Positions 9,333 to 62,547 of a stretch of DNA of 64,000 nt are shown here, piece after piece. The DNA is from Alphaproteobacteria bacterium (lineage in GTDB: Bacteria > Pseudomonadota > Alphaproteobacteria > UBA7887), in the NCBI GenBank assembly GCA_965216755.1, contig CBDCGL010000011.1:3317536-3381535 (forward strand), given 5' to 3'. The notes beneath the pieces are model-generated. The model was not told the origin of the DNA and made no database searches. It saw nothing but the letters and a program-made list of their open reading frames with translations. Within the stretch, counting starts at the first letter, position 1. Every line of letters begins with the position of its first letter. The position numbers were made by a program, and so were the translations under genes.

Positions 9333-10805
9333 CTACCCCTGCAAACGCGACGTGGTCGGTACGTCCGCTGTCGGGTCGGCGCGCCGCCCCGGCGCCGCCC
9401 ACGCCATGGCAAACAGCACAATCAGTGCCGGCTCGGCTGGATGACGGTATTTCGCCGATGCGATCGGCCCGTTGATCGCCAGCACATAGCCAATCCAGGC
9501 GACCAGAACGAACGCCGCTGCGCGAGCAAGGCGATCACCACGCAGCAATGTCCACAGGCCCCAAAGCTGAATGACACGGACGATGCCGACACCCAGCGCG
9601 CTGAGCAGCAATACCCATCCGTACAGTGGATTGTCATTGCGAAACAAAAACGCGAACACCTTCTCGCCTTTTGACGTGCCGGGCGTGTCATAGAAGCCGG
9701 TGCGTGGCAAACCGCGCACCGGTGGCGACAAGATAATTGCCGGAGCGCCGAGATTGATAGCGGCGCCAAACGCATAGGCCTTTGCGACCGCGCGCGCGCC
9801 ATAGTCGACCAGCGTGCGCAACGCGAGATCCGTTTTGGCACGACTCTCCCGCAACGGGTTGCGCGGCGCGTCCACCTGGTCCACCCGGGCGCGGGCTTCC
9901 AGCGTCGCATTCAGGGCGGCTGCGGAGACGTCATGGGGCGTGCCATCGATTGTTTCCCGCACCAAAGGCACGACCCAAAGCAGAAAGTGATCACCGCCCT
10001 GGCTGGATAGGCTGTAGCTGCCGAACATGTCGTGGTTGCGTTGCGCAATTGGGGTCACAGCAATTATCAGGGCGATGCCGATCGCGGCCAACGCGGGCCA
10101 AACGCGGCGACTGAATCGGCCCGCGATTATGACGGCTATCAGCATGACGATCGGCAAGGCGAGCGCCCACGGAAACGCCATCGCGCGCACCAATATCGCG
10201 CCGCCGATGGCGCCGCCCAAGGCCAAGGCGTGGTACAGGCGTGGCCGCGTCAGATAGCGCAGCGCGCACCACAACATCAACGCACAACAAAAGGTGAAAA
10301 GGGTTTCTGTCAGCAGCAGACCGCCAATAACGATCTGGGTCGGATTGAAGACCGCCGCCAGCCCGGCCACGAGTCCGGTGCGCGCCGACAGCAGCGCGGC
10401 GCTGCTGGCGATGATGACGCATGTCAAACTATCGATAATGCCTTGGCCAAGCACCGGCACAAGGTGGTTCGCGTCTCCAAATACCCGCATGAGGGCAACC
10501 AAGAACCAGAAATAGGCCGGCATGTAGCTGGTGTCGGGAAGGCTGGCGGTGCCCGCCATGATCGGATAAGCAGCCCCAGTTTCGCGCATCAACCGTGCGG
10601 CGGCGATATAAGCGCCCGAATCCTCGATCGACAAACCAGCATCACCCAGGCCGATGTAAAGGACCAAGCTATACGTCCATCGGACAGCCAGGGCACCGCA
10701 AAAAATCAACAACAAAGGATGTCGGGCCATCAGAGTCGCGGCCCATGGACTCACGCCGCGCGCGCATCTATTCGGTGTTGTTGGTTGTGAGGAAACGGAA
10801 GACAT
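9333..10805 (-). CDS. polytopic GT-C type membrane glycosyltransferase (ArnT/PMT GT39/83-like); start uncertain (10805 or 10730)
   Basis: More than 10 predicted TM helices, extracytoplasmic-loop acidic motif near the N-terminus, resembles ArnT/PMT-type lipid-linked-sugar transferases. An O-antigen polymerase/ligase cannot be excluded without an HMM search. Confidence 0.5.
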   Translation of the reverse strand: MSSVSSQPTTPNRCARGVSPWAATLMARHPLLLIFCGALAVRWTYSLVLYIGLGDAGLSIEDSGAYIAAARLMRETGAAYPIMAGTASLPDTSYMPAYFWFLVALMRVFGDANHLVPVLGQGIIDSLTCVIIASSAALLSARTGLVAGLAAVFNPTQIVIGGLLLTETLFTFCCALMLWCALRYLTRPRLYHALALGGAIGGAILVRAMAFPWALALPIVMLIAVIIAGRFSRRVWPALAAIGIALIIAVTPIAQRNHDMFGSYSLSSQGGDHFLLWVVPLVRETIDGTPHDVSAAALNATLEARARVDQVDAPRNPLRESRAKTDLALRTLVDYGARAVAKAYAFGAAINLGAPAIILSPPVRGLPRTGFYDTPGTSKGEKVFAFLFRNDNPLYGWVLLLSALGVGIVRVIQLWGLWTLLRGDRLARAAAFVLVAWIGYVLAINGPIASAKYRHPAEPALIVLFAMAWAAPGRRADPTADVPTTSRLQG

Positions 10806-14859: not shown

Positions 14860-15621
14860 ATGATGCGCGCGATTTTTGAACAACTGCTGTTGGTGCCGAC
14901 GGTGCTGGTGTGGATTGCCGTGTTCGGTTTGCTGGTGTGGCGCTGGCGGCGTCTGAGCCTTGCGTGTCTAATCGCCGCCATTGGCGGCTTGTTTGTTTTG
15001 AGTTTGCCCATTGTCGCACGCGCGCTGCTGCTGCCGCTATTGGCGACGGTGACCTTGTATGACGGTGCCGATCTGGCCGGTGATATCATATTGGTTCCGA
15101 CCGCCGGCATATTTCGCGATGTCGAAGGGACGCCTTGGCCGTCGGCCGAAAGCATTCGCCGTGCCAGCCAAGGCCGGCGGATCCAAGTCCAGACCGGTTT
15201 GCCGTTGGCAATTATCGGCGGTGATCCGCAGGGAATCGGTGTCGCAGAGGCATTCGTCGTCGCCGACGCGCTCGGCGAAACGCCGGGGCCAGTCGTGATC
15301 GACGGTGCCGCCGACAACTCGATCGAAACGGCATTTGCACTGGCGCGCATCGTCCGCGAGATCGGCGGTCGCGAGGTCATACTTGCGACCACGCCGACCC
15401 ATGTCGCGCGCATGGCGGCCAGTTTACGCCGGGTCGGCGTGGTCGTTTTGGCCGATTTGTCCGCCCATCCGGCGCGGCAGCCCGTGGCGATCACGGACTT
15501 CCTCCCCAGCGCCGGTGGCCTCGCGCAAAGTCGCCATGTGATCCGCGAATATGCTGCGATTCTGTGGTATTTGTTCGACGGCTCCATTCGCGTTGGCGAT
15601 CTGCGGCCGGCAGCGGGCTAG
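14860..15621 (+). CDS. YdcF/ElyC-like DUF218 family protein (envelope biogenesis associated)
   Basis: 253 aa, N-terminal TM helices followed by a DUF218-like Rossmann-like domain (ILVPTAGIF... VIDGAADNSIETA). Confidence 0.6.
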   Translation: MMRAIFEQLLLVPTVLVWIAVFGLLVWRWRRLSLACLIAAIGGLFVLSLPIVARALLLPLLATVTLYDGADLAGDIILVPTAGIFRDVEGTPWPSAESIRRASQGRRIQVQTGLPLAIIGGDPQGIGVAEAFVVADALGETPGPVVIDGAADNSIETAFALARIVREIGGREVILATTPTHVARMAASLRRVGVVVLADLSAHPARQPVAITDFLPSAGGLAQSRHVIREYAAILWYLFDGSIRVGDLRPAAG

Positions 15622-15636
15622 TAAGGACGTGACACG

Positions 15637-16137
15637 GTGAAGCGCTGGTTTGTGGTTCATACGCGCGCCCATGGCGAACAGCGCGCCTACGAAAACCTCT
15701 GCCGCCAAGGTTTCGACGCTTGGTTGCCGCGCTACCGCAAGAAGCGCCGCCACGCAGGTCGCCTGGAAACTGTTTTGCGACCTCTCTTCCCCAGATATCT
15801 GTTTGTGTCCGTGGATTTGGCGGCCGAACGTTGGCGCGCCATCCTATCGACCTTTGGGGTCGCCGGGTTGGTGGGCGCCGTAGATGGCCCAGAGCCGGTG
15901 CCCGACGGCGTTGTCAACGCCTTGCGTGCGCGCGCCGACGCCGATGGCTGTTTCACGTTGCATCGGGCGGCGACGATGAAACCGGGCCAGCCGGTGCGTA
16001 TCGGCGCCGGCCCCTTTCAAGACATCGAAGGGATTTTTCAAGCCCCTAGCGACGCCGAGCGGGTGGTTATTCTGCTGCAACTGATGGGGCGCACGGTTTC
16101 GATCACCGTGCCGGCATCGGATATCGACGCGCTCTGA
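15637..16137 (+). CDS. NusG-paralog transcription antiterminator, RfaH-like (NGN + KOW domains)
   Basis: 166 aa; MKRWFVVHTRAHGEQRAYENL (NGN domain, compare RfaH WYLLYCKRGQ), PLFPRYLFVSVD (RfaH PLFPNYLFVEFD), C-terminal KOW-like GQPVRIGAGPFQDIEGIF. Encoded inside the glycan island, and an exact ops element occurs at 23100-23111. Confidence 0.8.
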   Translation: MKRWFVVHTRAHGEQRAYENLCRQGFDAWLPRYRKKRRHAGRLETVLRPLFPRYLFVSVDLAAERWRAILSTFGVAGLVGAVDGPEPVPDGVVNALRARADADGCFTLHRAATMKPGQPVRIGAGPFQDIEGIFQAPSDAERVVILLQLMGRTVSITVPASDIDAL

Positions 16138-16147
16138 TGTTTCGGTG

Positions 16148-16253
16148 TTTCGGCATTTCGGTGACAGTTTACTAAATACACCATATTCAGCGTATTCTCG
16201 GCAGGCACTACAGCTTGTGGTGTATTTAGTAAACTGTCACCGAAATGCCGAAA
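16148..16253. repeat. perfect 36-bp inverted repeat (arms 16148-16183 and 16218-16253, 34-nt loop) flanked by tttcggtg-type 8-mer repeats; fills the convergent gap between the rfaH-like gene and cysQ
   Basis: Read directly: TTTCGGCATTTCGGTGACAGTTTACTAAATACACCA ... TGGTGTATTTAGTAAACTGTCACCGAAATGCCGAAA, no mismatches. Three tandem 8-mers (tttcggtg tttcggca tttcggtg) on the left are mirrored on the right. No U-tract on either side. Confidence 0.9.
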
Positions 16254-16255
16254 TA

Positions 16256-17029
16256 TCAGGCGCCGCGGGCGATGAAAAAGCCGTTGCGGAAATCCGTCTT
16301 GCCGTAAAGAAACGGTTCGTCGTCTGGCGTACGTACGCTGCCGCCTGCGGCCAACAATACCGCATGACCGGCCGCGGTGTCCCATTCCATGGTTGGTCCG
16401 AAACGAGGATATAGATCGGCCTCGCCCAGGGCGACCACACAGAATTTGTAGGACGAGCCGGCCTGGTGCAGACCGGCGACACGAACGGATTTGAGCCAGG
16501 CTTCGGTTTCGGCGCTGAAATGGGAGCGACTGGCGACCACCGTCGCCCCATCCGCCGGGGCGGCCCGAACATGTATGGGTTCGATCGGGCCGTCGCCCTG
16601 CCGGCGAAATGCCTGACCGGGCGTATAGCCCCAGACCAAAACATCTTTGGCCGGCAGCTGCACGACCCCCAGAACCGGCAGGCTGTTTTCGATCAACGCG
16701 ATGTTCACCGTGAATTCGTCGCGGTTCTTGATGAACTCCTTGGTGCCGTCCAGCGGGTCGACCAGCCAAAACAAATCATTGTCCGGAATGCCGGCGGCCA
16801 CCGACTCGGTACTTTCCTCAGACACGATCGGGATATCCGGGGTCAAGGCCCGCAGGCCGTCGACGATGACCCGGTTAGCGGCCAGATCCGCCTCGGTCAC
16901 CGGCGAGCGGTCATCCTTGGTCTCGACGGTGATGCCACGCGCGCGCACGGCCAGGATTTCGCGTCCGGCGCGGCGCGCGATATCGCAAATGGGCGGCGCC
17001 AACGCCGCCAGATCAATGGTATCTGTCAT
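16256..17029 (-). CDS. cysQ: 3'(2'),5'-bisphosphate nucleotidase (PAP phosphatase)
   Basis: 257 aa, inositol-monophosphatase fold motifs ([17 protein letters not shown]). ATG at 17029 overlaps the cysNC stop. Confidence 0.85.
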
Positions 17030-18927
17030 ACCGTGTACTGAAACCGCTGGTCGATATACGTCAAGATTTCACGGGCGCAGTCATCGACCGACCGCGCGGC
17101 CGTGTCGACGACCAAATCCGGCGTCTCGGGCAATTCATAAGGTGCACTGACGCCGGTGAACTCGCTGATTTCGCCCTTGCGCGCGCGCTTGTACAGGCCT
17201 TTGGGGTCACGCGCCTCACAGGTTGCCAAATCAGCCTTGATATAGACTTCATGAAAACCACCCTCCAAAGACAGCCGGTCGGTGGCTTCGCGGGCACGGT
17301 GGCGGTCGGCGCGATAGGGCGAAATAAACGCCGTCAGAACGATCATGCCGGCATCCGCGAACAAGGCGGCAGCTTCGCCAACCCGGCGAATATTCTCGGC
17401 GCGATCTTCCGGCGAAAAGCCGAGATTGGCGTTCAGGCCCATCCGGACATTATCGCCGTCCAGCACATAGACATGGTAGCCGCGGGCGAACATCAAGCGC
17501 TCGACCGCGCGCGCCAGGGTCGATTTGCCGGCGCCGGACAGGCCGGTGAACCACACCACGCCGCCGCCATGGCCGTTCCGCTTGCTTCGCGCGTCCTCGT
17601 CGATCGTGCCGCGTTCTTCATAGACATTGGTCGACTTGACCGTGATCAACGAGCGCTGATCCGGATAGCCTTCCATGCTGACAATGCCGCCGCCGGCGAT
17701 CTCGTAACCGTCGACCAAGACAAAGCGTCCGGTGCGCGGATTGCGGGCATATTCATCCAAAGCGAGCATCGATCGCGCTCGCAGCACGACTTCGCCGACG
17801 GTGTTTTGCTCCATGCGGTCGGCGGCGACATGGTCGAGGGATTCGGAATCGATCGCATGTTCAATCGACTGCACGGTGACCGCCGTTTCGATGGTGTTGA
17901 GCTTGAGCTTGTATTGGTTGCCCGGCGCCAGCGCCCGCTCGCCCAGCCAAAACACACGCGCTCGAAACACGTTTGACTCAACCGGCGGGCGGTCGATATG
18001 GCTGGCAATTTCGCCACGCTCGACAAACAGCTGCTCGTCCAGCGTCACGCCGACCGATTGGCCGGCGCGCACTTCGATCGGTGGGTCGGCGTGCCAGGCC
18101 TCAATCGAGCGGACCCGCGCGGTCTTGTTCGACGGCGAAAACAACAAAGTATCGCCGACGCGCACAATGCCACTTTCGATACGGCCCGCGAAAATGCGCC
18201 GTTCGTCGAATTTGTAGACGTCTTGGACGGCAAATCGCAGCGGCAGATCGGTCGGTGGCGGCAGTGGCTCGAAGCCGTCCAACGCCTCGAGCAGGCCCGG
18301 GCCCTCGTACCACGGCGTGCGTTCGGAATTGACGACGATATTGTCGCCTTCCCGGGCCGACACCGGTAAAACATGTCGCGGTGTCACGCCCAGTTCGCTC
18401 AAATAAGCACAGAATTCCTTCTCGACTTGCGCGAAACGGCCGGCGTCATAATCGATCCGGTCGATCTTGTTGATCACCAGGATCACCTGCGTGATGCCCA
18501 AAAGGTGCAGCAGGTAACCATGTCGGCGCGACTGCTCGCGCACGCCTTCTTCGGCGTCGATCAACAACACCGCGGCGTCGGCGGCCGCGGCGCCGGTGAC
18601 CATGTTGCGCAGGAATTCTTTGTGGCCGGGCGCGTCGATGATGACATAGTCGCGCAAGGCACTGCGAAACCAGATGTGGGCGGTATCTATGGTCACGCCC
18701 TGATCGCGTTCACCCTGCAAGGCATCGGTCAGAAACGCCCATTCGAAAGGCATGCCGCGGCGTCGACACATCTCTTGTATGGCCTCGAACCGACCCTCGG
18801 GCAAACTGCCGGTGTCGTGAAATAACCGTCCAACCAAAGTCGATTTGCCGTGGTCGACATGGCCGACAATGACGATCCGCAATGGATCGCCCAACGGCGC
18901 CACGGGGTGTGTTTTGCGCGCTGCCAT
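17026..18927 (-). CDS. cysNC: bifunctional sulfate adenylyltransferase subunit 1 / adenylylsulfate (APS) kinase (CysN-CysC fusion, NodQ-like)
   Basis: 633 aa; N-terminal GTPase ([11 protein letters not shown]) of the CysN type and C-terminal APS kinase P-loop ([15 protein letters not shown]). Confidence 0.9.
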
Positions 18928-18933
18928 GGCGTT

Positions 18934-19731
18934 CTACATATAGCCATCGGCGCGCAAGCGCTCGAAGGCATCCTCTGCTTCGTGGTCCATTGCGCGCCCC
19001 GACCGTTCCGGGACCCGCGTTGTCTCGAGTTCCGCGATGATCTCCTCGACCGTGCTGGCGTCGCTGTCGATCGGCGACGTGATGTCCTCGTCGCCCAGCG
19101 AGCGATAGCGCTTGCCGTCTTTCGAGAAATACAGATCGACGATCGGGATGTGTTCGCGGGCGATATAGCGCCAGATATCGATTTCCGTCCAATGCAACAA
19201 GGGATGCACGCGGACATGCGTGCCCGGTGGGAAATCGACGTTGTATTGATCCCAGAATTCGGGCGGCTGCTTGCGCACATTCCAGGCGGCATCGATGCCG
19301 CGCGGACTGAACACGCGCTCTTTTGCGCGGGTGCCTTCCTCGTCGCGGCGAATGCCGGCGATAAGGCCCGTATAGCCTTGGCGTTCGATCATCGCCTTCA
19401 GGCCGCCGGTCTTGCGCGCCGCCGAACGGGCCGCGGGCGGTAGCGAGGGATCGATCTCTTCAATCGGCGGACAATCGCCGGTGACCAGATCCAATTCCCA
19501 TTCGCGCGCGTAGCGTTCGCGAAAGGCATACATTTCCGCAAATTTCTTACCGGTGTCGACGTGGACAACCGGGAACGGCACCCTGCCGAAAAACGCCTTT
19601 TTGGCGAGCCAGACCAGAACGTTGGAATCTTTTCCCAACGACCACAGCATCGCCAGATTGTCGATGCGGTTAAAGGCCTCGCGAAAAATATAGACGCTTT
19701 GGCTTTCCAGCCGGTCTAAATGTGATGTCAC
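18934..19731 (-). CDS. cysD: sulfate adenylyltransferase subunit 2 (CysD/NodP)
   Basis: 265 aa; LESQSVYIFREAF ... PAPS-reductase-like PP-loop (LWSLGKDS). GTG start at 19731. Confidence 0.88.
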   Translation of the reverse strand: MTSHLDRLESQSVYIFREAFNRIDNLAMLWSLGKDSNVLVWLAKKAFFGRVPFPVVHVDTGKKFAEMYAFRERYAREWELDLVTGDCPPIEEIDPSLPPAARSAARKTGGLKAMIERQGYTGLIAGIRRDEEGTRAKERVFSPRGIDAAWNVRKQPPEFWDQYNVDFPPGTHVRVHPLLHWTEIDIWRYIAREHIPIVDLYFSKDGKRYRSLGDEDITSPIDSDASTVEEIIAELETTRVPERSGRAMDHEAEDAFERLRADGYM

Positions 19732-19990
19732 GCCTTGCCACCGCCCTTTTTGGGGCGGCGCCCTTGGTTCAATTTATCGGAGGCCCCCGGCTAAGCCGGA
19801 CGGGCCTTATACGGCGATGTCACGCGCCGCGCAACCGCAATGGCGCGCAGACTAAGGGCGGCCGCTTAAGTCTTTCCTAATGGGTCGCCGGCGAGCACCG
19901 AATTTGATGACATCGGCGGGCGATGCCTGGCGCCGTGGTGACCGCGCTGGCGTCCTCAGCGTACGCAAAAAATGATCCGCGTTCAAAACG

Positions 19991-21010
19991 TTACAGAACG
20001 TAGTCCGAACTGGCCCGGACATCCCCGCGCTGCAAGCGCCGTCGCCACCAGTCGATGGTTCGCGCCAAGCCATCGCGCAAGCTGGTCTCAGGTTGCCATC
20101 CTGTATGAGATGAAAAACGCTGCCAATCGGCGAGCAGAGCGCGCACTTCCGATCCCGGCGGTCGCTGTCGTCGCGGGTCCTCTCGAATCGGCTTGGTGGT
20201 GCCGGTCAGTTCGCGCACCATTTCGACCATTGCGCCGATGGTCACCGCGACGCCGGTGCCGGCATTGTAGGGCATGCCATGGTCCAATCCCGTGGTGGCG
20301 CCGGCAGCGAGAAAGGCGGCGGCGGTGTCGCCGACAAAGGTGAAGTCACGGGACGGGCTTAAATCACCCAATGCGATGCTGTCGCAATCGGGATCCAAGG
20401 CCTGGCGGATCGTGCTGGCGATGACGGCGCGCTCGCTTTGACGCGGACCGTAAGTGTTGAACGGGCGCAGCACGACGGCCGGTACTTCAAAGCTCAGGGC
20501 GTAAGCCTGGGCCATCATATCGGCCGCGATCTTACTCGCCGCATAGGGCGATTGGCCGGTCAACGGATGGTCTTCATCAATCGGCGTGCGCCGCGCCGTG
20601 CCATAGACCTCGCTGGTCGAGGTCATCACGACCCGTTCGGGACGGTGATTCCGTGCCGCTTCCAGCAAGTTGACGGCGCCGCCGACATTGACGTCAAGGT
20701 AGCTCTGGGCCGCCCGATAGGAATACGGGATCGCGATCAACGCCGCCAAATGAAAGATGATCTCCTGATCGGCGCACAGACGTCGCACGAAGTGGGCGTC
20801 GCGCATATCGCCGCGCACCAGCGTTAATTGGGCGCGGATGCCAGAGTCGAGACTGTCCAGCCAGCCATGGCTATCGCCGGCATTGTAAAGCGCCAACGCC
20901 GTCACCCGCGCCCCTTGTCCGACCAATGCCTCGGCCACATGAGAGCCAATGAAGCCGTCGGCGCCGGTCACCAAAATGCGGCGACCTTGATAGCTGCTTG
21001 TCTGGGTCAT
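19991..21010 (-). CDS. NAD-dependent sugar-nucleotide epimerase/dehydratase (extended SDR family; UDP-glucuronate decarboxylase / 4-epimerase-like)
   Basis: 339 aa; ILVTGADGFIGSHV Rossmann motif and YxxxK (YAASK). First gene of the minus-strand operon that continues into cysD-cysNC-cysQ. Confidence 0.75.
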   Translation of the reverse strand: MTQTSSYQGRRILVTGADGFIGSHVAEALVGQGARVTALALYNAGDSHGWLDSLDSGIRAQLTLVRGDMRDAHFVRRLCADQEIIFHLAALIAIPYSYRAAQSYLDVNVGGAVNLLEAARNHRPERVVMTSTSEVYGTARRTPIDEDHPLTGQSPYAASKIAADMMAQAYALSFEVPAVVLRPFNTYGPRQSERAVIASTIRQALDPDCDSIALGDLSPSRDFTFVGDTAAAFLAAGATTGLDHGMPYNAGTGVAVTIGAMVEMVRELTGTTKPIREDPRRQRPPGSEVRALLADWQRFSSHTGWQPETSLRDGLARTIDWWRRRLQRGDVRASSDYVL

Positions 21011-21105
21011 GTGCGCCTGACTTGCTGAACCAAAACTGCGCCCGGCACCTTAACCGAAAATCGACACCGGTCCAGACGTGCGGCTTAGGCTTTCCTTAAA
21101 CCCGT

Positions 21106-21117
21106 GTTGGTAGGGTG
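21106..21117 (+). promoter_or_regulatory. ops-like element (GTTGGTAGGGTG) in the 5' leader of the glycosyltransferase gene
   Basis: Matches the ops consensus GGCGGTAGnnTG at 8 of 10 specified positions; shares the 8-mer GTAGGGTG with the leader at 56958-56965. Confidence 0.35.
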
Positions 21118-21172
21118 GTCATCGCGATATCCACGCCCGGCGCAGAGGCGCCCAAGTCCAACGGTGACTGTC

Positions 21173-21886
21173 ATGACTGTCGAACCCATCCGCGTTTTTG
21201 TCGGCTACGACCCCCGCGAAGCGGTGACCTTCAGCGTCCTTGCGCACAGCATCCATCGTCATGCCAGCGTACCGGTTTCAATTACGCCGCTGATGCTGTC
21301 GCAGCTGGGCGGTGTGATGACCCGGCCGCGCGATCCCTTGCAGTCCACCGACTTCTCGTTTTCGCGCTTTCTGACGCCCTATCTGTGCGGCTTTCAGGGT
21401 TGGTCGTTGTTTACCGACTGCGACATGATCGTGTGCGACGATATCGCCAAGCTATGGGCGTTACGCGATGATCGTTATGCCGTGATGTGCGTTCAGCACG
21501 ACCACAAGCCGACCGAGTCGGTGAAGTTCTTGGGCGCGGTCCAAACCAAATATGACAAAAAGAACTGGTCCAGCGTGATGCTATTCAACAATGCCAAATG
21601 CGCCGCGTTGACGCCTGAGTATGTCAATTCGGCCAGTGGCTTGGAACTGCACCAGTTCAAGTGGCTCGACGACGACTCCTTGATCGGCGCGGTGCCGCAA
21701 GACTGGAACCACCTGGTCGACGTGAATCCCGCAAACGCCGATGCGAAGTTGGTCCACTACACGCTCGGCGGGCCGTATTTTAACGAATATATGAACTGCG
21801 AATTCGCTGCCGAATGGTTCGATGAATATAGCCAAACCGTGCGGTGCGACCAACGGGTTGCCGAAAAACCAGCCAAGACCGGCTGA
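21173..21886 (+). CDS. GT-A fold DxD glycosyltransferase (GT8-like nucleotide-diphospho-sugar transferase)
   Basis: About 237 aa from ATG 21173 (MTVEPIRVFVGYDPRE...), DxD-type motif TDCDMIVCDD. The ORF-track N-terminal extension from 21104 is unlikely. Confidence 0.55.
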   Translation: MTVEPIRVFVGYDPREAVTFSVLAHSIHRHASVPVSITPLMLSQLGGVMTRPRDPLQSTDFSFSRFLTPYLCGFQGWSLFTDCDMIVCDDIAKLWALRDDRYAVMCVQHDHKPTESVKFLGAVQTKYDKKNWSSVMLFNNAKCAALTPEYVNSASGLELHQFKWLDDDSLIGAVPQDWNHLVDVNPANADAKLVHYTLGGPYFNEYMNCEFAAEWFDEYSQTVRCDQRVAEKPAKTG

Positions 21887-21904
21887 TTCGGCCACCGCGG
21901 CGCA

Positions 21905-22843
21905 CTATTCCGTGGCGATCATGTCGCGATAGGTTTGGTCGAGCCGTTCAAATAGCTCGTCGCACATTTGTTGAATGCGTGGATCGCGTGCCGCGAACGG
22001 GCTTTTGCGCACCGATGTGGCGAAGATCGACGACAGGAATCGTGGTGACAGCTTGCAACCGATCGCTTCAAAAATGCGCGCGAAACTGGTTTCTGGTTGG
22101 GCGACCAGATCCTCGTATTTGACCAGTAACACGCGCGGATTGCTGTCCAGCGCTTGGGCGAAATAGAACTGATTGCGCAAATACCAAAACACCGCCGCGG
22201 CGTCTTCGGCGGGCATATCGTCGGCATATAATTCCGAGACGCGCGCGATCAGCGCCGGTGTCAACCGTTCCGCGCGCCAGCCGAGCTTGGGCCACGCGCC
22301 GTCGCGGATCCATCGCAGAACGTCTTTTTGATGTTCGCCCCAATAGCGCACCGCCGAATTCGCCACATCGCCGTAATGGCGAAAAATCCAGATAGCGACG
22401 GCGCGCGAATCCAGTTCCAAGATCCGATCCGCCGCTTGGGAATTCATGATCGGCTTAAACGCGATGGTCGGCGCATGGCTGTGCGCGATCAGACCCTTAA
22501 TGGTGTCCGCATCGCGCAGCAGTCCGTATTTCAAGGCCGCGTTGGTGCCTTCCGGATAAACCCAAATCTCCGGCGATTGATCCAAGATCTCGCCCAGCAT
22601 TGTGGTGCCTGATCGTTGGCAACCCAGAATGAAGACGGGTGTTTTCGGTTGGTTGGCCCGATAGCGCAGGCGTTGCCACAGATATTTGCGCGCCAATTTC
22701 AGGCGCGTGGCGGCCGCGCGCCAAGCCCGCCCCATGGTCATCGGGTCAGGTTCCGGGCCCTGAATGCGCAAATCATAGTTGCCGAATTCAGATTGCGGGC
22801 GCGTCTCGTGTCTGTCGTCCGAATCCGAGACCTTGATGTTCAT
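21905..22843 (-). CDS. PAPS-dependent sulfotransferase
   Basis: 5'-PSB motif FILGCQRSGTTMLGEIL and downstream 3'-PB-like region. ATG at 22843. Divergent from the mega-operon promoter region. Confidence 0.7.
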   Translation of the reverse strand: MNIKVSDSDDRHETRPQSEFGNYDLRIQGPEPDPMTMGRAWRAAATRLKLARKYLWQRLRYRANQPKTPVFILGCQRSGTTMLGEILDQSPEIWVYPEGTNAALKYGLLRDADTIKGLIAHSHAPTIAFKPIMNSQAADRILELDSRAVAIWIFRHYGDVANSAVRYWGEHQKDVLRWIRDGAWPKLGWRAERLTPALIARVSELYADDMPAEDAAAVFWYLRNQFYFAQALDSNPRVLLVKYEDLVAQPETSFARIFEAIGCKLSPRFLSSIFATSVRKSPFAARDPRIQQMCDELFERLDQTYRDMIATE

Positions 22844-22988
22844 GGTCGGGACGTTTTTTGGGATCCGCTGTTTGGTGCGGCGAAGGGCGAAGTTGGTCCA
22901 GAATATAGAGGCCACACCGGTGAAGACAACGCCGCTTTGCGGGCGCCGAGTCGGACGCGCGCGAGCTTTTGTTTGAAGCTTGACCTGG

Positions 22989-23027
22989 CGTTCAAATTAT
23001 GAACACCTTTCGCGTTCATAATGTGAA
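22989..23027. promoter_or_regulatory. pair of 15-bp palindromic operator-like sites, GTTCAAATTATGAAC (22989-23003) and GTTCATAATGTGAAC (23013-23027); a -35-like TTGACC lies at 22979-22984
   Basis: Read directly. Both sites have perfect GTTCA/TGAAC outer half-sites with AT-rich 5-bp centres, centres 24 bp apart. Located in the divergent promoter region between the sulfotransferase (-) and the mega-operon (+), about 75-120 bp upstream of the ops element. Confidence 0.45.
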
Positions 23028-23099
23028 CGCATTGCCGCGCCCCGGCGCGGCAGGGTTTGCCTCAGACGCTCTAACCTGGTGAAGCCTTTCACCCGGAAT

Positions 23100-23111
23100 G
23101 GCGGTAGCGTG
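23100..23111 (+). promoter_or_regulatory. exact ops (operon polarity suppressor) element GGCGGTAGCGTG, the RfaH recruitment site, 21 nt upstream of the first ATG of the mega-operon
   Basis: Perfect 12/12 match to the canonical ops sequence on the coding strand of the leader. The first gene lacks a recognisable SD, as expected if RfaH couples the ribosome. An RfaH-like gene is present at 15637-16137. Chance expectation of an exact 12-mer in 2 x 64 kb is about 0.008. Confidence 0.75.
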
Positions 23112-23132
23112 CCCCGCGGCCGTCAATTGTTC

Positions 23133-24272
23133 ATGATACCCAGCTCGCAAACAACCTATGTTCGGCAAACGCCATTGCCGGCAACGGGTGCGCCGTGGCC
23201 GCGTCGCGCGGCGACCGACTTGTGGCGGCATTTCGTCCGGCGCCTCTATCGGAGCCCGCGTTTGGCGGTGACCGAGGCCGACGTGGTGCAGGCCGCGCGG
23301 CCGCGCGATGTCGGGGCGGAAAGCATCAATATTTGCAATGCCCGGTGCACGTTTTGCGGCTATGGCAAGGGGCCTGACGGCAAGGCCGCGGACGCGCGGC
23401 GCAAGGGCAAGTTATCCGCGGACGTGTTTCGTCACACTTTGCGGCTTTACTCTGCCGCGGGCGGCGGTGTCTTCGCCCTGTCGCCGATCTTGGGTGAAGT
23501 GTCGGCGGACCCGCGCTGGCTCGACATGGTGCGCGAGGCGCGCAGCTTCGACAACATCACCGGTGTCAGCTGTTTCACCAATGCCATCCTCCTGCATCGC
23601 TTCGGCGCCGATGCCATCGTCACCGCGGGCATCACCCATATGGCGTTGTCAACCTCGCTTGGCTCGGCGGAACAGTACCGGCGGCTCTATGGGGTCGACA
23701 AATATGATCAGGTGGTGGCCAACATTCTGGACCTGTTGCGTGCCAACCAGCGCCATGGCGCGCCGGTCGATATCAGCATTCATTTGCGCATCGACAAGCC
23801 GTTTTCGAGATTCTTTCGCTCGGACATTTATGCCGAACTGCTGAAATATGTGCCGGCGTCGCGTATTCAAATCTTGGATGATGGCTGGGACGATTTCAAA
23901 GGCCTGATTGGTTCGGACGGCCTGCCCGGTGGTCAACAGTTCAAGGTTCAATATCCAGACAAATCTGTGCCGTGCTATGCGATTTATAGAAAGTTGCAGG
24001 TGCTGAAGGACGGCACGATCCAAGGCTGTTCGTGCCGGATCGAACCCGATCTGTGGGTCGGCAACATCATGGACTTTGACAGCATGGAAGCGGCGTGGCG
24101 CAACCCGGCCTTTGAAGCGCTGCGGGCAAACTGGCATGCGGGCACGATCCCAAACAGCTGCAAGAATTGTAGCCATTACGAGCCCTACACCAATTTGCTG
24201 CGCGCGGCACGACCCGTCACCGTGGCACGGGCGATTGTCGGCAAGCTCAAACGCGTGCTGGGACGGGCCTGA
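23133..24272 (+). CDS. radical SAM protein with C-terminal SPASM-like Cys cluster
   Basis: CNARCTFC (Cx3Cx2C) radical-SAM motif followed by additional Cys motifs (CSCRIEPD ... CKNCSHY). About 379 aa from ATG 23133. Function in glycan modification unknown. Confidence 0.7.
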   Translation: MIPSSQTTYVRQTPLPATGAPWPRRAATDLWRHFVRRLYRSPRLAVTEADVVQAARPRDVGAESINICNARCTFCGYGKGPDGKAADARRKGKLSADVFRHTLRLYSAAGGGVFALSPILGEVSADPRWLDMVREARSFDNITGVSCFTNAILLHRFGADAIVTAGITHMALSTSLGSAEQYRRLYGVDKYDQVVANILDLLRANQRHGAPVDISIHLRIDKPFSRFFRSDIYAELLKYVPASRIQILDDGWDDFKGLIGSDGLPGGQQFKVQYPDKSVPCYAIYRKLQVLKDGTIQGCSCRIEPDLWVGNIMDFDSMEAAWRNPAFEALRANWHAGTIPNSCKNCSHYEPYTNLLRAARPVTVARAIVGKLKRVLGRA

Positions 24273-24899
24273 ATGGCGCGCGAACCGACCGCGCGCGACG
24301 GTCGCGAACAAGCGATTGTTCGCGAAGTTCTTGAACGGATCGACGAATCGCAAGAGATCAGTCAGCGGCAATTGGCCTCGGATTTGGGGATCGCCTTGGG
24401 CATGGCCAACGCCTATATCAAGCGCTGCATTCGCAAGGGCTGGATCAAGGTCAACGAGGCGCCGGCCCGCCGCTATCGCTATTACCTGACGCCAAAAGGG
24501 TTCGCCGAAAAAAGCCGACTGACGGCGCAATACTTTTCTGATTCCCTGCGTTTTTTCGGCCGCGCCCGGCAAAGTTACGATGCCTTGTTCGCGCAATTGG
24601 TGCGGCGCGGCGCGCGCCGCGTGGTGCTGTGCGGTGCCGATGAGCTGACTGAAATCGCGGCACTGTGCGCCCTGAAACACGATGTTAAGGTGGTCGGCGT
24701 GCTGCGCGGCGATGGGCGCGATGATCCGCTTGCCGGGCTACCGGCGATCGGCGAAGCATCTGCGGGCAATGTCGACTATTGGGTGATCGCCAGCTCCAGC
24801 GACGCCGCGCCGCTCTATACGCGAATTGGCGCCGCCAAAGGGCTTGATCATGTTGCCTATCCAGAGCTGTTGCGCCGGGTGGTGGGCGCGGCGCAATGA
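24273..24899 (+). CDS. winged-helix (MarR/ArsR-like wHTH) regulator with C-terminal Rossmann-like domain
   Basis: N-terminal wHTH (REVLERIDESQEISQRQLASDLGIALGMANAYIKRCIRKGWIKV). ATG overlaps the upstream stop (TGAATG region). Confidence 0.55.
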   Translation: MAREPTARDGREQAIVREVLERIDESQEISQRQLASDLGIALGMANAYIKRCIRKGWIKVNEAPARRYRYYLTPKGFAEKSRLTAQYFSDSLRFFGRARQSYDALFAQLVRRGARRVVLCGADELTEIAALCALKHDVKVVGVLRGDGRDDPLAGLPAIGEASAGNVDYWVIASSSDAAPLYTRIGAAKGLDHVAYPELLRRVVGAAQ

Positions 24900-27639: not shown

Positions 27640-28340
27640 CGGCGTCGGTGGTCGCGGTTATTCAGGCGCGCATGGGATCGAAACGATTACCTGGCAAAGT
27701 GCTGGCGCCGCTGGCTGGCGCGCCTCTGCTGCAGCACTTGGTCGCGCGGGTGCGGCGTTCCCGGCGCCTTGACGACGTGGTTGTCGCGACCAGCGATCAG
27801 GCCGCGGACGATGCCATCACCGCGCTGTGCGCGACACTTGGCGTCGCGTGTTTTCGCGGCAGTGAATGGGATGTCTTGGATCGGGTGTTGGCGGCGGCGG
27901 GCAACGCCGAGATCGTTGTGCGGTTGACGGCCGACAATCCGTTCGTTGATGGCGCCTTGATTGATTATGTGTTGGCCGCGGCGCTGCCGACCATGCCGCC
28001 GGCGGTCTATGCCAGCAATATTGCGTGCGGCGACTTCCCGGTGGGACTCTATGTGGAGGTCGCCGCCAAAGCGGCGTTGCTGGTGGCCGCTGAGAGTAGC
28101 GATCCCGCCGATCGTGAACATGTCACCTGGTATTTGCGCCGCCAACCTGAACGATTTCCGGCGACCGATGTTGGCGCGCCAGGCCGGTTTCCCGATATGC
28201 CGCTGACCATCGACACGGCGGCGGATCTCACAAGGGTCGGCGGGTTGTTCGCCGCGTTCCATGGCCGCGATCCGAACTTCAATTATCGCGATCTTATGGC
28301 CCTGGCCATACCCAAACAGGAAAGGCAAGCGGCGCCATGA
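27636..28340 (+). CDS. acylneuraminate (nonulosonate) cytidylyltransferase (PseF/LegF/SpsF family)
   Basis: VIQARMGSKRLPGKVL N-terminal CMP-transferase motif; 234 aa. Confidence 0.85.
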   Translation: MTASVVAVIQARMGSKRLPGKVLAPLAGAPLLQHLVARVRRSRRLDDVVVATSDQAADDAITALCATLGVACFRGSEWDVLDRVLAAAGNAEIVVRLTADNPFVDGALIDYVLAAALPTMPPAVYASNIACGDFPVGLYVEVAAKAALLVAAESSDPADREHVTWYLRRQPERFPATDVGAPGRFPDMPLTIDTAADLTRVGGLFAAFHGRDPNFNYRDLMALAIPKQERQAAP

Positions 28341-29344
28341 CCGATGCGCTGATGATTAGCCAAACAAAGATTGGTGACGGTGCGCCACCCTATTTGATCG
28401 CCGAAATCGGCATCAATCACGGTGGCGACGTTGGTTTGGCGGCGCGCATGATCAAAGAGGCGCGGGCTGCTGGCGCCCAGGCCGCCAAGTTGCAAGCGTT
28501 CCGCACCGCTGCTTTGGTGGCGCGCACCAGCCCCTATTTTCAGGTGCTTGACGATGCCGCGCTCAGCAAATCGGCGTTGGCGCAACTGGTGGGAGTCGCG
28601 CGCGACGCGGGCGTTGCCATGTTCGCCTCTGTCTTCGATGAAGACAGTGCAGACACCATGGCGGATCTGGATGCGCCGGCGTTCAAGATCGCGTCCGGCG
28701 ACATCAACCATTTGCCCCTGTTGCGCCATGTCGCGGCGTTCGGACGGCCAATGATCATCTCGACCGGCGGCGCGACCATGGGTGATATCGAACGCGCGCT
28801 GTCGGCCGTGTCCCAAGGCGGCGCTGCGCCCGTGGCGTTGCTGCATTGTGTGTCGCACTATCCGACTCCGGCGGCGCAAGCCAATTTGGCTTGCTTGCCG
28901 ACCATCAAGGCGCAGTTCGGTGTCCCGGTTGGCTTTTCCGATCACACAATGGGCGAAGCGGTGGCCCTGGCGGCCGCCGCGTTGGGCGCCGACATCATCG
29001 AGAAACACTTCACCTTCGATCGCGACGCGCCGGGCCCGGACCATGCCTTGTCGTCGGATCCGGCCGGTTTGACGCGCTTGGCTGAAGGGCTGCAGACGGT
29101 TTGGCAAGCGGTCGGCCACAGTCAAAAAATGCCGGTCGAGACCACAGATCACGTCACTCAAATTCGCCGCTGTGTCACGGCGGACGTGGCCATCCCGGCA
29201 GGCACCGAGGTTCGCGCCGACATGCTGGCGGTGAAACGGCCGGGCACGGGTCTCGCGCCGGACGCCCGCGACCTGGTGGTCGGCCGCCGCGCGCGCCAAG
29301 ACATCCCGGCCGAAACCGCCATCGACTGGTCTATGATCGATTGA
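28337..29344 (+). CDS. NeuB-family nonulosonic acid synthase (N-acetylneuraminate / legionaminate / pseudaminate synthase), copy 1
   Basis: YLIAEIGINHGGDVGLAARMIKEARAAGAQAAKLQAF TIM-barrel NeuB signature and C-terminal SAF/antifreeze-like domain. Confidence 0.88.
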   Translation: MTDALMISQTKIGDGAPPYLIAEIGINHGGDVGLAARMIKEARAAGAQAAKLQAFRTAALVARTSPYFQVLDDAALSKSALAQLVGVARDAGVAMFASVFDEDSADTMADLDAPAFKIASGDINHLPLLRHVAAFGRPMIISTGGATMGDIERALSAVSQGGAAPVALLHCVSHYPTPAAQANLACLPTIKAQFGVPVGFSDHTMGEAVALAAAALGADIIEKHFTFDRDAPGPDHALSSDPAGLTRLAEGLQTVWQAVGHSQKMPVETTDHVTQIRRCVTADVAIPAGTEVRADMLAVKRPGTGLAPDARDLVVGRRARQDIPAETAIDWSMID

Positions 29345-35212: not shown

Positions 35213-36368
35213 GGTGGAGCGGCGCTACGATATCCCTTTGAGCGTGCCGGATTTGCGCGGCCGCGAACGCGAGTATCTGACTCGTTGTGTCGACGAGAAT
35301 TGGGTGTCGACCGCCGGGCCATTCGTCGATCAGGTCGAAGATGGTTTGGCGGCCATAAGTGACCAAGACCACGCCGTGGCGACTTGTACGGGGACCGCGG
35401 CGCTGCATTTGGCGTTATTGGCGGTGGGGGTCAAGGCCGGCGACCTGGTCATCGTGCCGGATTGGACATTCGGGGCAACAGCGAACGCGGTGTATCATGC
35501 CGGGGCGACGCCGCTTTTGGTCGATGTGCAATCAACCTGTTGGACCTTGGATCCGGCGCGGGTCGAAGATGTGCTCAACACGCGCGCAGTGGCGGCGGTC
35601 ATCGCCGTTGACGCGCTCGGGCATCCGGCTGACATGGACGCGCTTGGCGCCGTGTGCCGCGACCACAATGTGCCGTTGATTGAAGATGCCGCTGGTGCCA
35701 TTGGCGCGCGCTACAAGGGGCGCCCGGCCGGCGGCTTGGCCGATGTCGGCATCTATTCGTTCAACGGCAACAAGACCATTACCGCGGGTGGCGGCGGCGC
35801 GGCGGTGACCAATCGCGACGACTATGCAACGCTTATGGCTCAACTGGCGGTGCATCGGGTCAGCGACGCCAGCCGTGCGCCCGGCGGGTTCTATCGCTAT
35901 GACGTGATCGGCTTCAACTATCGCATGACCAATATCAGCGCCGCGCTGGCGTTGGCGCAATTGGAGCGGTTGGATCAGATGTTGGCGCGCAAAAGGGCGA
36001 TTGCAGCCTGTTACGACCAGGGCCTGGCCGGACGCGACGACCTGCGGCCCATGCCGCGGGCGGCGTGGGCGGACCCGAACTGCTGGATGTATTCGGTCAT
36101 GTGCGGGTCGGCGGATGATGCGGACCGCCTGGTCCGCCATTTGGAACAGCAGCGCGTGCAGGCACGGATATTTTGGCAGGCCCTGTCCTCACAAACGGCG
36201 TACGATTCGGCGCCGCGCGACATTGGCGGGGTGGCACAAGCGATCGGTGCCCGAACGGTCGCCTTGCCATGCAGCAGCAATCTTACCGAAGATCAACAGC
36301 ACTATGTGCTCGGGTTGCTCCGCGAATGGCAGGGCAACCCGGTGGCGGAGCTGGCGCAGGCTTCATGA
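35196..36368 (+). CDS. DegT-family PLP-dependent sugar aminotransferase (LegC-like)
   Basis: IPLSVPDLRGREREYLTRCVDENWVS N-terminal DegT signature, FNGNKTITAGGGG Lys region. Start ATG 35196 (alternative GTG 35214). Confidence 0.85.
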   Translation: MVGRLKVERRYDIPLSVPDLRGREREYLTRCVDENWVSTAGPFVDQVEDGLAAISDQDHAVATCTGTAALHLALLAVGVKAGDLVIVPDWTFGATANAVYHAGATPLLVDVQSTCWTLDPARVEDVLNTRAVAAVIAVDALGHPADMDALGAVCRDHNVPLIEDAAGAIGARYKGRPAGGLADVGIYSFNGNKTITAGGGGAAVTNRDDYATLMAQLAVHRVSDASRAPGGFYRYDVIGFNYRMTNISAALALAQLERLDQMLARKRAIAACYDQGLAGRDDLRPMPRAAWADPNCWMYSVMCGSADDADRLVRHLEQQRVQARIFWQALSSQTAYDSAPRDIGGVAQAIGARTVALPCSSNLTEDQQHYVLGLLREWQGNPVAELAQAS

Positions 36369-37387
36369 CGTCGACGCCGCCAACGGTGATCGCCGAAGCC
36401 GGAGTCAATCACAATGGCGATTTGGCACGCGCCCGCGAAATGGTGGCCGCGGTCGCCGCGACTGGGGCCGACATTGTTAAGTTCCAGGCCTTCCAGGCTG
36501 ATCGCCTGGTCACCAAGACCGCCGCAACCGCTGCCTATCAACACTCCAACACCGGCTTGCGCAACCAGGTCGATATGTTGCAAGCCTTGGAATTGACTCT
36601 GTATGACTTCGCCGTCTTGGCGGATGATTGCCGTAACAACAAAATTGAATTTCTGTGCACGCCATTCGATATCGATTCTCTGAACGGCCTGATGGCGATT
36701 GGCATGGCGCGTGTCAAGGTGGCATCGGGCGAACTGACCAATTTGCCATTGTTGCGCGCGATTGGCGGCTACGGCGTGCCAGTGATCCTGTCCACCGGCA
36801 TGGCGAATGTGGATGAGGTCGCGGTGGCGCTGGCTGCCTTGCGCGACAACGGCGCCGGCCCGGTGACTTTGTTGCATTGCACGTCGCAATATCCGGCGCC
36901 GATAGACTCGCTCAATTTGCGCGCGATCGTCAGCCTGCGTGACCGGTTTGGCGTTTCGGTTGGCTATTCCGATCATAGTGTGGGGAACATGGCGGCGATC
37001 GCGGCGGTCGCGCTCGGCGCGACAGTGATCGAGAAGCACTTTACTTTGGATCGGTCGTTGCCGGGCCCGGATCACGCGGCATCGCTGTTGCCGAATGAAG
37101 TCGCTGACTTGGTAGCGGCCGTGCGTGACGCGGCGCGTGCATTGGGCAACGGCCGTAAACAACCGACAGCCGCGGAACTGGAAACCGCGCGCTTGGTGCG
37201 ACAAAGCTGGCATGCCGCGCGCAATTTGGCGAGAGGACACGTGATTGGCGATGGCGATGCGGTGCTAAAAAGACCAGACACCGGCTTAGCGCCGGCTATG
37301 TCGCCGGTCGGGCGCAGTTTGCGCGTTGATGTGATGGCAGACATGCCCCTGCGGGCCGACGATTTGGTCGAGGACGTGCGCCCATGA
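36365..37387 (+). CDS. NeuB-family nonulosonic acid synthase, copy 2 (LegI-like)
   Basis: VIAEAGVNHNGDLARAREMV ... KFQAF NeuB signature. ATG 36365 overlaps the upstream stop (ATGA); the upstream 64 codons of the ORF-track entry are a shadow extension. Confidence 0.88.
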   Translation: MTSTPPTVIAEAGVNHNGDLARAREMVAAVAATGADIVKFQAFQADRLVTKTAATAAYQHSNTGLRNQVDMLQALELTLYDFAVLADDCRNNKIEFLCTPFDIDSLNGLMAIGMARVKVASGELTNLPLLRAIGGYGVPVILSTGMANVDEVAVALAALRDNGAGPVTLLHCTSQYPAPIDSLNLRAIVSLRDRFGVSVGYSDHSVGNMAAIAAVALGATVIEKHFTLDRSLPGPDHAASLLPNEVADLVAAVRDAARALGNGRKQPTAAELETARLVRQSWHAARNLARGHVIGDGDAVLKRPDTGLAPAMSPVGRSLRVDVMADMPLRADDLVEDVRP

Positions 37388-57942: not shown

Positions 57943-57966
57943 GCGCGATCCGTCAATCAACCTGAA

Positions 57967-62546: not shown

Positions 62547-62547
62547 A

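Follow-up and report, generated by a model that had tools for sequence, protein, structure and literature searches.

The stretch of DNA studied here, hereafter the window, comprises 64,000 nucleotides (nt) from an alphaproteobacterium of the lineage UBA7887 (assembly GCA_965216755.1, contig CBDCGL010000011.1, positions 3,317,536 to 3,381,535). On its + strand it carries a gene for an RfaH-like specialised paralog of the elongation factor NusG (15637-16137), a 12-mer, GGCGGTAGCGTG, identical to the operon polarity suppressor (ops) element of Escherichia coli (23100-23111), and a long array of glycan genes beginning at 23133. In E. coli and Salmonella, RfaH together with the ops element of the JUMPstart leader (Rfam RF01707) controls the waa, rfb, kps, hly and tra operons. 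A preliminary description of the window, made from the sequence alone, had joined these parts into a dedicated RfaH/ops circuit. The linkage of gene and element throughout a clade of relatives supported that proposal, which had left out three parts of the locus: a covarying hairpin, tandem operators and a gene encoding a MarR-like winged helix-turn-helix (wHTH) protein.

The product of 15637-16137 has 166 amino acids (aa) and contains the motif PLFPRYLFV, as had been described. The GTG start of its open reading frame (ORF) aligned to M1 of the homologues. It matched the Pfam NusG NGN domain (PF02357) with 73 bits over residues 2-96, and a full-length alignment with E. coli RfaH spanned residues 1-159, comprising the NGN domain and a C-terminal domain of KOW length. 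Classification by hidden Markov models (HMMs) and by structure, which had been proposed for separating RfaH from generic NusG, favoured the former. The best NCBIfam model was RfaH (TIGR01955, 121.2 bits), followed by UpxY (NF033644, 82.8 bits, cutoff 100), NusG (TIGR00922, 53.2 bits, cutoff 135.7) and LoaP (NF033641, 45.9 bits, cutoff 125). E. coli RfaH (2oug) was the best sequence match in PDB, with an E value of 2e-14 and an ungapped alignment over residues 1-103. The AlphaFold2 (AF2) model had a predicted local distance difference test score (pLDDT) of 78 overall and of 57-77 in the C-terminal domain, and its best fold matches with Foldseek were the autoinhibited RfaH structures 5ond/8pfg (root-mean-square deviation 5.8 Å). 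Housekeeping nusG sits in a conserved secE-nusG-rplKAJL context. The gene studied here does not lie in a secE-nusG-rplK context: a DUF218/ElyC-like gene (14860-15621) ends 16 nt before it and cysQ lies downstream. The HMM scores, the sequence and fold matches in PDB and the genomic context together identified the protein, at the level of sequence and predicted structure, as a specialised paralog of the RfaH type distinct from housekeeping NusG, RfaH-like but no strict NCBI equivalog. A total of 494 homologues were found at E <=1e-5 in Alphaproteobacteria and Rhodospirillaceae metagenome-assembled genomes, already labelled 'transcriptional activator RfaH'.

The ops 12-mer at 23100-23111 is placed on the + strand, which is the coding, non-template strand, and a search of both strands of the window found no other exact copy. 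From the base composition (61% G+C) about 0.011 copies per strand, or 0.022 on both strands, were expected by chance, which is of the same order as the 0.008 estimated before. In the window GGCGGTAGnnTG stands upstream of a long polysaccharide operon on the non-template strand, the arrangement by which ops/JUMPstart sites are recognised. The distance of 21 nt between the end of the 12-mer and ATG 23133 given in the preliminary description was correct, the ATG being in frame with the ORF 23079-24272, and the predicted pause base of the element, T11, falls at 23110. A sequence with one mismatch to ops at 19436-19447 was rejected, as it lies antisense in cysD, lacks the hairpin described below and is at chance level (0.59 expected with at most one mismatch). 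Taken by itself, a 12-mer with an expectation of ~0.01-0.02 in 64 kb could be a rare coincidence near a NusG paralog that is functionally unconnected with it, and a protein that scores below the RfaH equivalog cutoff would suit that explanation. The loci of relatives bear directly on it.

Eighty rfaH loci, one per species from GTDB genomes, were fetched with 10-kb flanks (1.37 Mb) by means of an alignment of 40 homologues. The 80 species representatives do not include the source genome of the window, and the best identity was 68%. Counts refer to the 78 loci in which 300 nt or more of sequence follow rfaH. In 62 of them a composite of hairpin and ops was found downstream of rfaH, on the same strand and once per locus, with the form of a 7-10 bp hairpin (GGGTG/CACCC), a spacer N2-4 and (G/T)GCGGTAGCNTG. 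The full ops matches recovered by a search with the ops core were all preceded by CACCCGGAAT, as in the window. The relaxed pattern CACC[CT]-N2-6-NGCGGTAGCNTN was present in exactly one copy in each of 57 loci and in the window, always on the rfaH strand, and five further loci had single-base variants. All 52 occurrences of GCGGTAGCNTG on both strands of the 1.43 Mb searched fell inside the composite and none elsewhere. The element lies 51-242 nt past the rfaH stop codon in 48 loci, about 1.1-1.3 kb past it in two, and 3.1-6.7 kb past it in 12. This last group includes the proteins most closely related to that of the window, where 7.0 kb separate the rfaH stop from ops. The gene placed immediately after the element varies by locus and may encode a PseB-like dehydratase, an ABC exporter, a nucleotidyltransferase, DegT, CysD or the wHTH protein. 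Since these first genes are non-homologous between loci, the element is a portable signal at the head of operons and no part of any gene. A composite present once per locus in 62 loci, with constant strand and order and with no other occurrence in 1.43 Mb, practically refutes the explanation by coincidence, to which we assign a negligible probability.

The hairpin of the window, CCTGGTGAA / TTCACCCGG with a 4-nt loop, was recognised as an inverted repeat and with RNAfold at 23075-23096 on the + strand; its last base precedes the pause base T11 (23110) by 14 nt, and 3 nt separate it from ops. Every instance of the element has the inverted repeat GGGTG/CACCC ending 2-4 nt before the 12-mer. In the alphaproteobacterial elements the distance from the last paired base to the downstream T11 is 12-14 nt, and such a spacing between hairpin and pause base is typical of pause-stabilising RNA hairpins. 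To judge from this spacing, the role of the hairpin may be to stabilise the pause or to contact RfaH. Because MAFFT left its 5' arm unaligned, an anchored, ungapped helix table and a covariance model (19 seeds, 10 bp) were used instead. In the helix table the core was 79-97% paired and the flanking pairs changed on both sides, one position for example being A-T in 29 cases, C-G in 8, G-T in 5 and G-C in 3. When 5' regions were swapped between loci, the own 5' region gave -13.8 kcal/mol and that of another locus -11.2, and none of 5000 permutations reached the native value. Among 53 aligned instances, 86% of the cells were paired, compared with 31-52% when the partners were slid. The covariation score of these 53 instances, whose alignment was fitted to the model, was 0.211 against 0.117±0.011 after shuffling, with 0 of 500 shuffles reaching the native score. 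The covariance model gave full-length matches on the + strand in about 60 loci; in the window its sole significant match was 23072-23113 (28.4 bits, E 8e-7), so a second ops or hairpin element was not found there. For single leaders RNAfold gave weak z-scores (-0.3 to -4), an effect of the high G+C content, and these were not used as evidence.

The covariation indicates selection on a single-stranded fold, and it could be argued that the hairpin and the 12-mer act mainly as RNA. They could form a leader structure to which the RfaH-like protein binds, much as LoaP binds a leader hairpin, or they could affect stability or translation or be a target of the wHTH protein. The match to ops would then reflect shared sequence ancestry and not a DNA-loading mechanism. 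The 3' arm CACCC is indeed conserved in sequence beyond what pairing needs, the element lies 21 nt from a start codon without a Shine-Dalgarno (SD) sequence, and in E. coli the small RNA RirA, which is the same 5' fragment of the JUMPstart/ops leader, binds RfaH (PMC5736990). However, roles in RNA and in DNA are compatible and do not exclude each other, the conservation of the 12-mer fits readout of a DNA hairpin together with pausing, and the palindromic form expected of a site for a wHTH dimer is that of the operators and not that of ops. A function mainly at the RNA level appears quite improbable to us.

In the copies of the 12-mer found by pattern (57 loci and the window) positions 2-9 and 11 were invariant and position 12 nearly so, while positions 1 and 10 varied, giving the consensus (G/T)GCGGTAGC-N-TG. 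The most frequent variants were TGCGGTAGCGTG (n=20), GGCGGTAGCGTG (n=13) and TGCGGTAGCATG (n=12), with a few others; the exact E. coli 12-mer is present in the window and in loci L002, L015, L017 and L019. Known ops elements pause RNA polymerase at U11 and cause an RfaH-dependent delay at G12, and the pause dinucleotide T11, G12 is present and conserved in the elements of the clade. In E. coli, substitutions of bases 3-8 reduce or abolish the recruitment of RfaH without affecting pausing (Zuber et al., 2018; PMC5995543), whereas T11/G12 induces the pause and a change of T11 is one of the strongest single-base defects (PMC5995543). The conservation profile of the 12-mer is the one expected from this mutagenesis. 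A few elements deviate at critical positions, with T6C in L072 (10558-10599) and T11C in L046 (~10552-10590) and L070 (~10547-10585), and the element of L063 has a divergent 3' end. These variants may be decaying or retuned elements.

Several observations weigh against a genuine RfaH/ops circuit. The TIGR01955 score of the protein (121.2 bits) is below the NCBI equivalog cutoff of 144.5. In E. coli RfaH an autoinhibited, alpha-helical C-terminal domain refolds to a beta-barrel (E48-R138 salt bridge, I93, F130). In the window protein the salt-bridge residue E48 is replaced by R and I93 by V, with F130 and R138 kept (as F134 and R142), and the C-terminal domain of the AF2 model is a low-confidence mixture of alpha and beta structure with short strands and a helix at 139-149. 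At the surface that contacts ops, K10 is replaced by R and is variable in the clade, H20 by N (N in 37 of the 40 aligned members) and R73 by F (F in 20, Y in 13 and R in 4). H20 and R73 are two of the four residues with which E. coli RfaH reads G5 and T6 (PMC5995543). Homologues with mixed C-terminal domains were inactive in an E. coli reporter without ribosome-binding site (PMC13015549). In addition, a simple scan of the + strand upstream of ops identified no canonical sigma-70 promoter, and no hairpin+ops was recognisable within the sequence searched in 16 of the 78 loci (e.g., L005, L006, L008, L009, L020, L023 and L025). The targets of these element-less rfaH homologues, if any, lie elsewhere. 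The element-less loci have different downstream genes, for instance a transporter-like ORF overlapping the rfaH stop codon.

Part of these data would be accommodated by assuming recruitment in cis or constitutive activity (monomorphic or not autoinhibited) of the RfaH-like protein, whose specificity would come from being made next to its target, and a 12-mer that is only a strong RNA polymerase pause reinforced by the hairpin and no sequence-specific docking site. The element does lie within 300 nt of the rfaH stop in 48 of 62 loci, E48 is replaced by R, H20 by N and R73 by F or Y, the AF2 model has a mixed alpha/beta C-terminal domain, and ops matches the consensus pause (PMC5995543). Tabilo-Agurto et al. 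(2026, preprint; PMC13015549) linked mixed and monomorphic C-terminal domains to adjacent long operons and proposed cis, ops-independent recruitment. The clade resembles their homologues in that the regulator stands at the head of a long operon or next to it and in the non-canonical, mixed C-terminal domain of the AF2 model; it differs from them in that a near-canonical ops is kept and that the gene of the window is uncoupled from the operon by 7 kb. Three observations speak against recruitment in cis. The bases G4-G5-T6-A7-G8 are invariant except in one of 62 elements (T6C, L072), though they are dispensable for pausing: they are variable in the consensus pause and in E. coli are needed only for contact with RfaH (PMC5995543). 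The residues R16, R23, Q24, T72, G74 and V75 of the DNA-binding patch that contacts ops are kept in the window protein and are invariant or nearly so in the clade. Moreover, ops is more than 3 kb from rfaH in the window, there with genes on the opposite strand in between, and in 11 further loci; coupling in cis is impossible in these cases, yet they have the element fully conserved. On balance we consider recruitment in cis unlikely, although it is the most serious competitor of a genuine RfaH/ops circuit.

The operon that follows ops agrees well with the earlier account of an almost gap-free, single-strand operon of about 34 kb. Over at least 33.8 kb (23133-56904) all genes are on the + strand with intergenic gaps of at most 35 nt, and after a gap of 117 nt the run on the same strand continues to at least 63693. 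The first gene (23133-24272, + strand) encodes a radical SAM/SPASM protein (Pfam Radical_SAM and SPASM) and the second (24273-24899, +) the MarR-like regulator. The rest of the tightly packed operon (24896-56904, +), defined by gene content and gaps, is the putative target of antitermination. It encodes three NeuB, three or four CMP-sugar cytidylyltransferases, two DegT, and PseB-, PseG- and NeuC-like enzymes. It also contains two WbuX with HisH/HisF-like amidotransferase partners, an ABC exporter, acetyltransferases, a sulfotransferase, and ATP-grasp, GNAT and PIG-L proteins. Genes for a KAS III-like protein, an AsnB-like protein, a GT4 glycosyltransferase, a GFO/IDH/MocA oxidoreductase, a hexapeptide acetyltransferase and DegT follow at 57022-63693 (+), after the 117-nt gap, as a probable continuation of the array. 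Terminator-like and promoter-like sites detected by scans inside the operon were at chance level and thus uninformative. The glycan island announced in the preliminary description is, judging from these genes, organised around nonulosonic acids of the legionaminic/pseudaminic type. NeuB-type synthases, cytidylyltransferases, PseB/PseG-, LegB- and NeuC-like enzymes and WbuX/HisH/HisF sets are found at 28337-29344, 36173-37387, 51665-52702 and in their neighbourhood, which suggests that more than one nonulosonic-acid pathway, with acetamidino modification, is encoded in the island, and indeed several distinct ones. A complete set for the supply of 3'-phosphoadenosine-5'-phosphosulfate (PAPS), consisting of cysQ, a fused cysN/cysC and cysD, is present with two sulfotransferase genes (16256-19731, - strand; 21905-22915, -; 45107-46078, +). 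Since these genes flank the island or lie inside it, they suggest that the glycan is sulfated.

Homologues of the first gene keep an N-terminal WRxFVRxLY (residues 32-40 in the window) and a preceding G-x-P-x-P patch, so that translation should start at or before ~23187, that is, at ATG 23133, TTG 23127 or TTG 23175. The start at TTG 23262, used in a database version of 336 aa, was rejected because it cuts off WRxFVRxLY, the real start being ~43 codons upstream. GTG 23283 has a good SD sequence and was also rejected on account of the conserved N-terminus of the homologues. Analysis of G+C at third codon positions (GC3) did not discriminate between starts of the radical SAM gene. The pairing energy with the anti-SD sequence in the 20 nt before ATG 23133 was -1.7 kcal/mol, among the weakest in the array, whose genes typically reach about -6; the statement that the first gene has no SD sequence therefore holds for the likely start. 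RfaH targets lack ribosome-binding sites, and the SD-less first gene agrees with this, which is a likeness to known targets and no proof of ribosome recruitment. A half-operator-like sequence, GTTCATGAT, at 23128-23137 overlaps ATG 23133 and repeats GTTCATAAT of operator 2.

Upstream of the hairpin a putative regulated promoter region (22980-23028) was recognised by its direct and inverted repeats. It consists of the hexamer TTGACC (22980-22985) and of two perfect GTTCA-N5-TGAAC palindromes at 22990-23004 and 23014-23028, 24 bp apart and placed within two 22-nt direct repeats. The window has no other palindrome of this kind. At every locus where ops is separated from rfaH, two to three copies are located 65-175 nt upstream of ops, against a background of 0.06 per 550 nt, and at most of the other loci the palindromes precede the wHTH-rfaH pair. 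The copies of relatives are 24-34 bp apart and often follow TTGAC (e.g., L049 9265-9306 and L007 13450-13530). The TTGAC block beside the operators is conserved in the alignment and is the sole promoter candidate, as searches for sigma-70 and EcfG-type promoters on the + strand upstream of ops, by eye and by scan, revealed none that was convincing. The motif GTTCA-N5-TGAAC did not match any regulator that could be named. Between the operators and the ops hairpin, a perfect GC-rich hairpin, TGCCGCGCC-CC-GGCGCGGCA, occupies 23033-23052 (+ strand; inverted repeat of 9 bp, 100% complementary). It may be a stem-loop of the 5' leader, and its sequence is variable among relatives in the alignment.

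The MarR-like protein of the second operon gene has a Pfam HTH_24 domain and matched the NCBIfam model TIGR04176, 'MarR family EPS-associated regulator', with 63.8 bits, below the cutoff of 88. Its AF2 model (pLDDT 83) consists of a wHTH, a long helix and a confident Rossmann-like C-terminal domain. A fold search in PDB with this protein gave no significant match, and a weak one to a Rex-like architecture (E 0.04) was not relied on. More than 2000 proteins belong to this family, and their annotation goes no further than 'winged helix-turn-helix regulator'. Homologues were detected with tblastn in 66 of the 80 rfaH loci. The gene usually stands between the operators and rfaH, close behind the former and immediately before the latter, and the protein is a candidate for binding the GTTCA-N5-TGAAC palindromes, which are probably sites for this MarR-like partner.

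The common order in the clade is operators (~100 nt upstream), wHTH gene, rfaH, hairpin+ops and glycan genes. With this layout rfaH and ops would probably share one transcript, so that RfaH would be made beside its loading site. The window is rearranged: rfaH stands behind the DUF218 gene, and PAPS and sulfotransferase genes on the opposite strand lie between rfaH and ops. Therefore, at 7 kb from ops, RfaH must act in trans here. The layout with read-through from rfaH to ops in relatives, together with the covariation of the hairpin, also points to a location of ops inside the transcribed leader.

Considering all these data, a genuine RfaH/ops transcription-elongation circuit of a Rhodospirillaceae-like alphaproteobacterium is the likely explanation of the locus, its molecular steps being modelled on E. 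coli, from the pause and the loading on the non-template strand to the exclusion of NusG and Rho and the recruitment of the ribosome. Transcription of the island would start between the tandem operators (22990-23028) and the hairpin at 23075, initiation being probably controlled by the MarR-like wHTH protein through the operators. The leader RNA would then fold the conserved hairpin (23075-23096), and RNA polymerase would pause at T11 of ops (23110), in a sequence that matches the consensus pause, with GGCGGTAGCGTG exposed on the non-template strand of the paused complex. The RfaH-like protein, encoded 7 kb upstream, would bind the exposed strand, displace NusG and travel with the polymerase, suppressing pausing and Rho-dependent polarity over at least 34 kb. 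It could possibly also recruit the ribosome to the SD-less first gene. The ancestral layout would have been operators, wHTH gene, rfaH, hairpin+ops and glycan genes, and the PAPS/sulfotransferase block would have separated rfaH from its element later in this lineage.

Compared with the system of E. coli, the window shares an NGN+KOW paralog of NusG, a very long operon for envelope glycans whose leader has the same 12-mer on its non-template strand, an SD-less first gene and action in trans. It differs in the residues of the reading pocket and of the salt bridge (N at H20, F or Y at R73 and R at E48), in the frequent T instead of G at position 1 of ops in the clade, and in gene order, as rfaH of most relatives is directly upstream of ops behind the wHTH gene whereas that of E. 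coli is monocistronic and unlinked. The leaders were also compared. The JUMPstart hairpin of E. coli ends 1 nt before ops and 12 nt before U11, close to the 12-14 nt of the alphaproteobacterial elements, but its stem is of 5 bp (CUGGU/GCCAG) and theirs of 7-10 bp (GGGTG/CACCC). The RF01707 model, which detected the waaQ leader of E. coli K-12 used as positive control (L081 12183-12221) with 55 bits, gave no match at E <=10 in the window at 22700-23400 nor in L049, L068 and L002. No known RNA family was identified with Rfam, either in the leader (E <=10) or, at gathering thresholds, in the whole window, and our hairpin+ops model matched the E. coli leader only via ops (11 bits). The layout of a hairpin followed by ops is thus common to Gamma- and Alphaproteobacteria, and the sequence family is not.

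Other specialised paralogs of NusG, such as UpxY/UpxZ of Bacteroides and LoaP of Bacillus, are encoded in the clusters that they control, and recruitment of LoaP needs a leader hairpin. The loci studied here resemble those of UpxY/UpxZ in that polysaccharide loci are headed by a NusG paralog paired with another small regulator gene, and that of LoaP in the leader hairpin. They are unlike both in that the UpxY and LoaP models score under that of RfaH, in that the partner is a DNA-binding wHTH protein and not an inhibitor of the UpxZ type, and in the presence of the ops 12-mer. An RfaH encoded in cis with an ops-like site has been reported on IncX plasmids (PMC11880322). Wang et al. (2020; PMC7593976) found that 18% of rfaH genes are alphaproteobacterial, that their cluster CL4 is associated with an HTH regulator and that clusters CL2-CL8 lie beside genes for envelope biogenesis. 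Our loci agree with these clusters in the HTH regulator next to rfaH and in the adjacent polysaccharide genes. The same authors considered the contacts with ops as 'late' in the evolution of RfaH (PMC7593976), whereas the alphaproteobacterial clade described here has kept an almost identical ops.

Hence RfaH/ops itself, the alphaproteobacterial RfaH with HTH regulator and polysaccharide genes (PMC7593976) and the hairpin+ops layout, as in JUMPstart, were already known. In the searchable literature we found no description of a near-canonical ops conserved across a clade of alphaproteobacterial RfaH, nor of the lineage-specific hairpin or of a module formed by operators, wHTH gene, rfaH and ops. 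A clade-wide ops sits awkwardly with the view of late ops contacts and with ops-free loading of operon-adjacent homologues. Two linked ideas, which we put forward only tentatively, would be that recognition of ops predates the split between the RfaH of Alpha- and Gammaproteobacteria, and that the loading signal is bipartite, consisting of an RNA hairpin and a hairpin of the non-template DNA. The first is based on the near-identical ops being kept by a clade without H20, R73 and E48 whose members are for the most part encoded in cis. If it is right, it would contradict the stepwise model, in which ops contacts and autoinhibition are late and homologues in cis load without ops; if the second is right, the covarying hairpin would be a functional RNA that stabilises the pause or binds RfaH.

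Among elongation factors that act sequence-specifically RfaH/ops is the textbook case, and, to our knowledge, its loading mechanism has been studied only in enterobacteria. The diverged pocket of the clade (N20, F/Y73 and R48) offers a natural experiment on which contacts are needed for reading ops, and the window, as the uncoupled, trans state of a module otherwise organised in cis, a test of the evolutionary model from cis to trans. The position of the hairpin before ops at the same distance in two classes of Proteobacteria points to a possible role of that hairpin. Furthermore, the covariance model flags the starts of RfaH-dependent glycan operons in Alphaproteobacteria, where Rfam finds nothing. 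Finally, the circuit predicts that the surface nonulosonic-acid glycans of these bacteria would depend on one small regulator.

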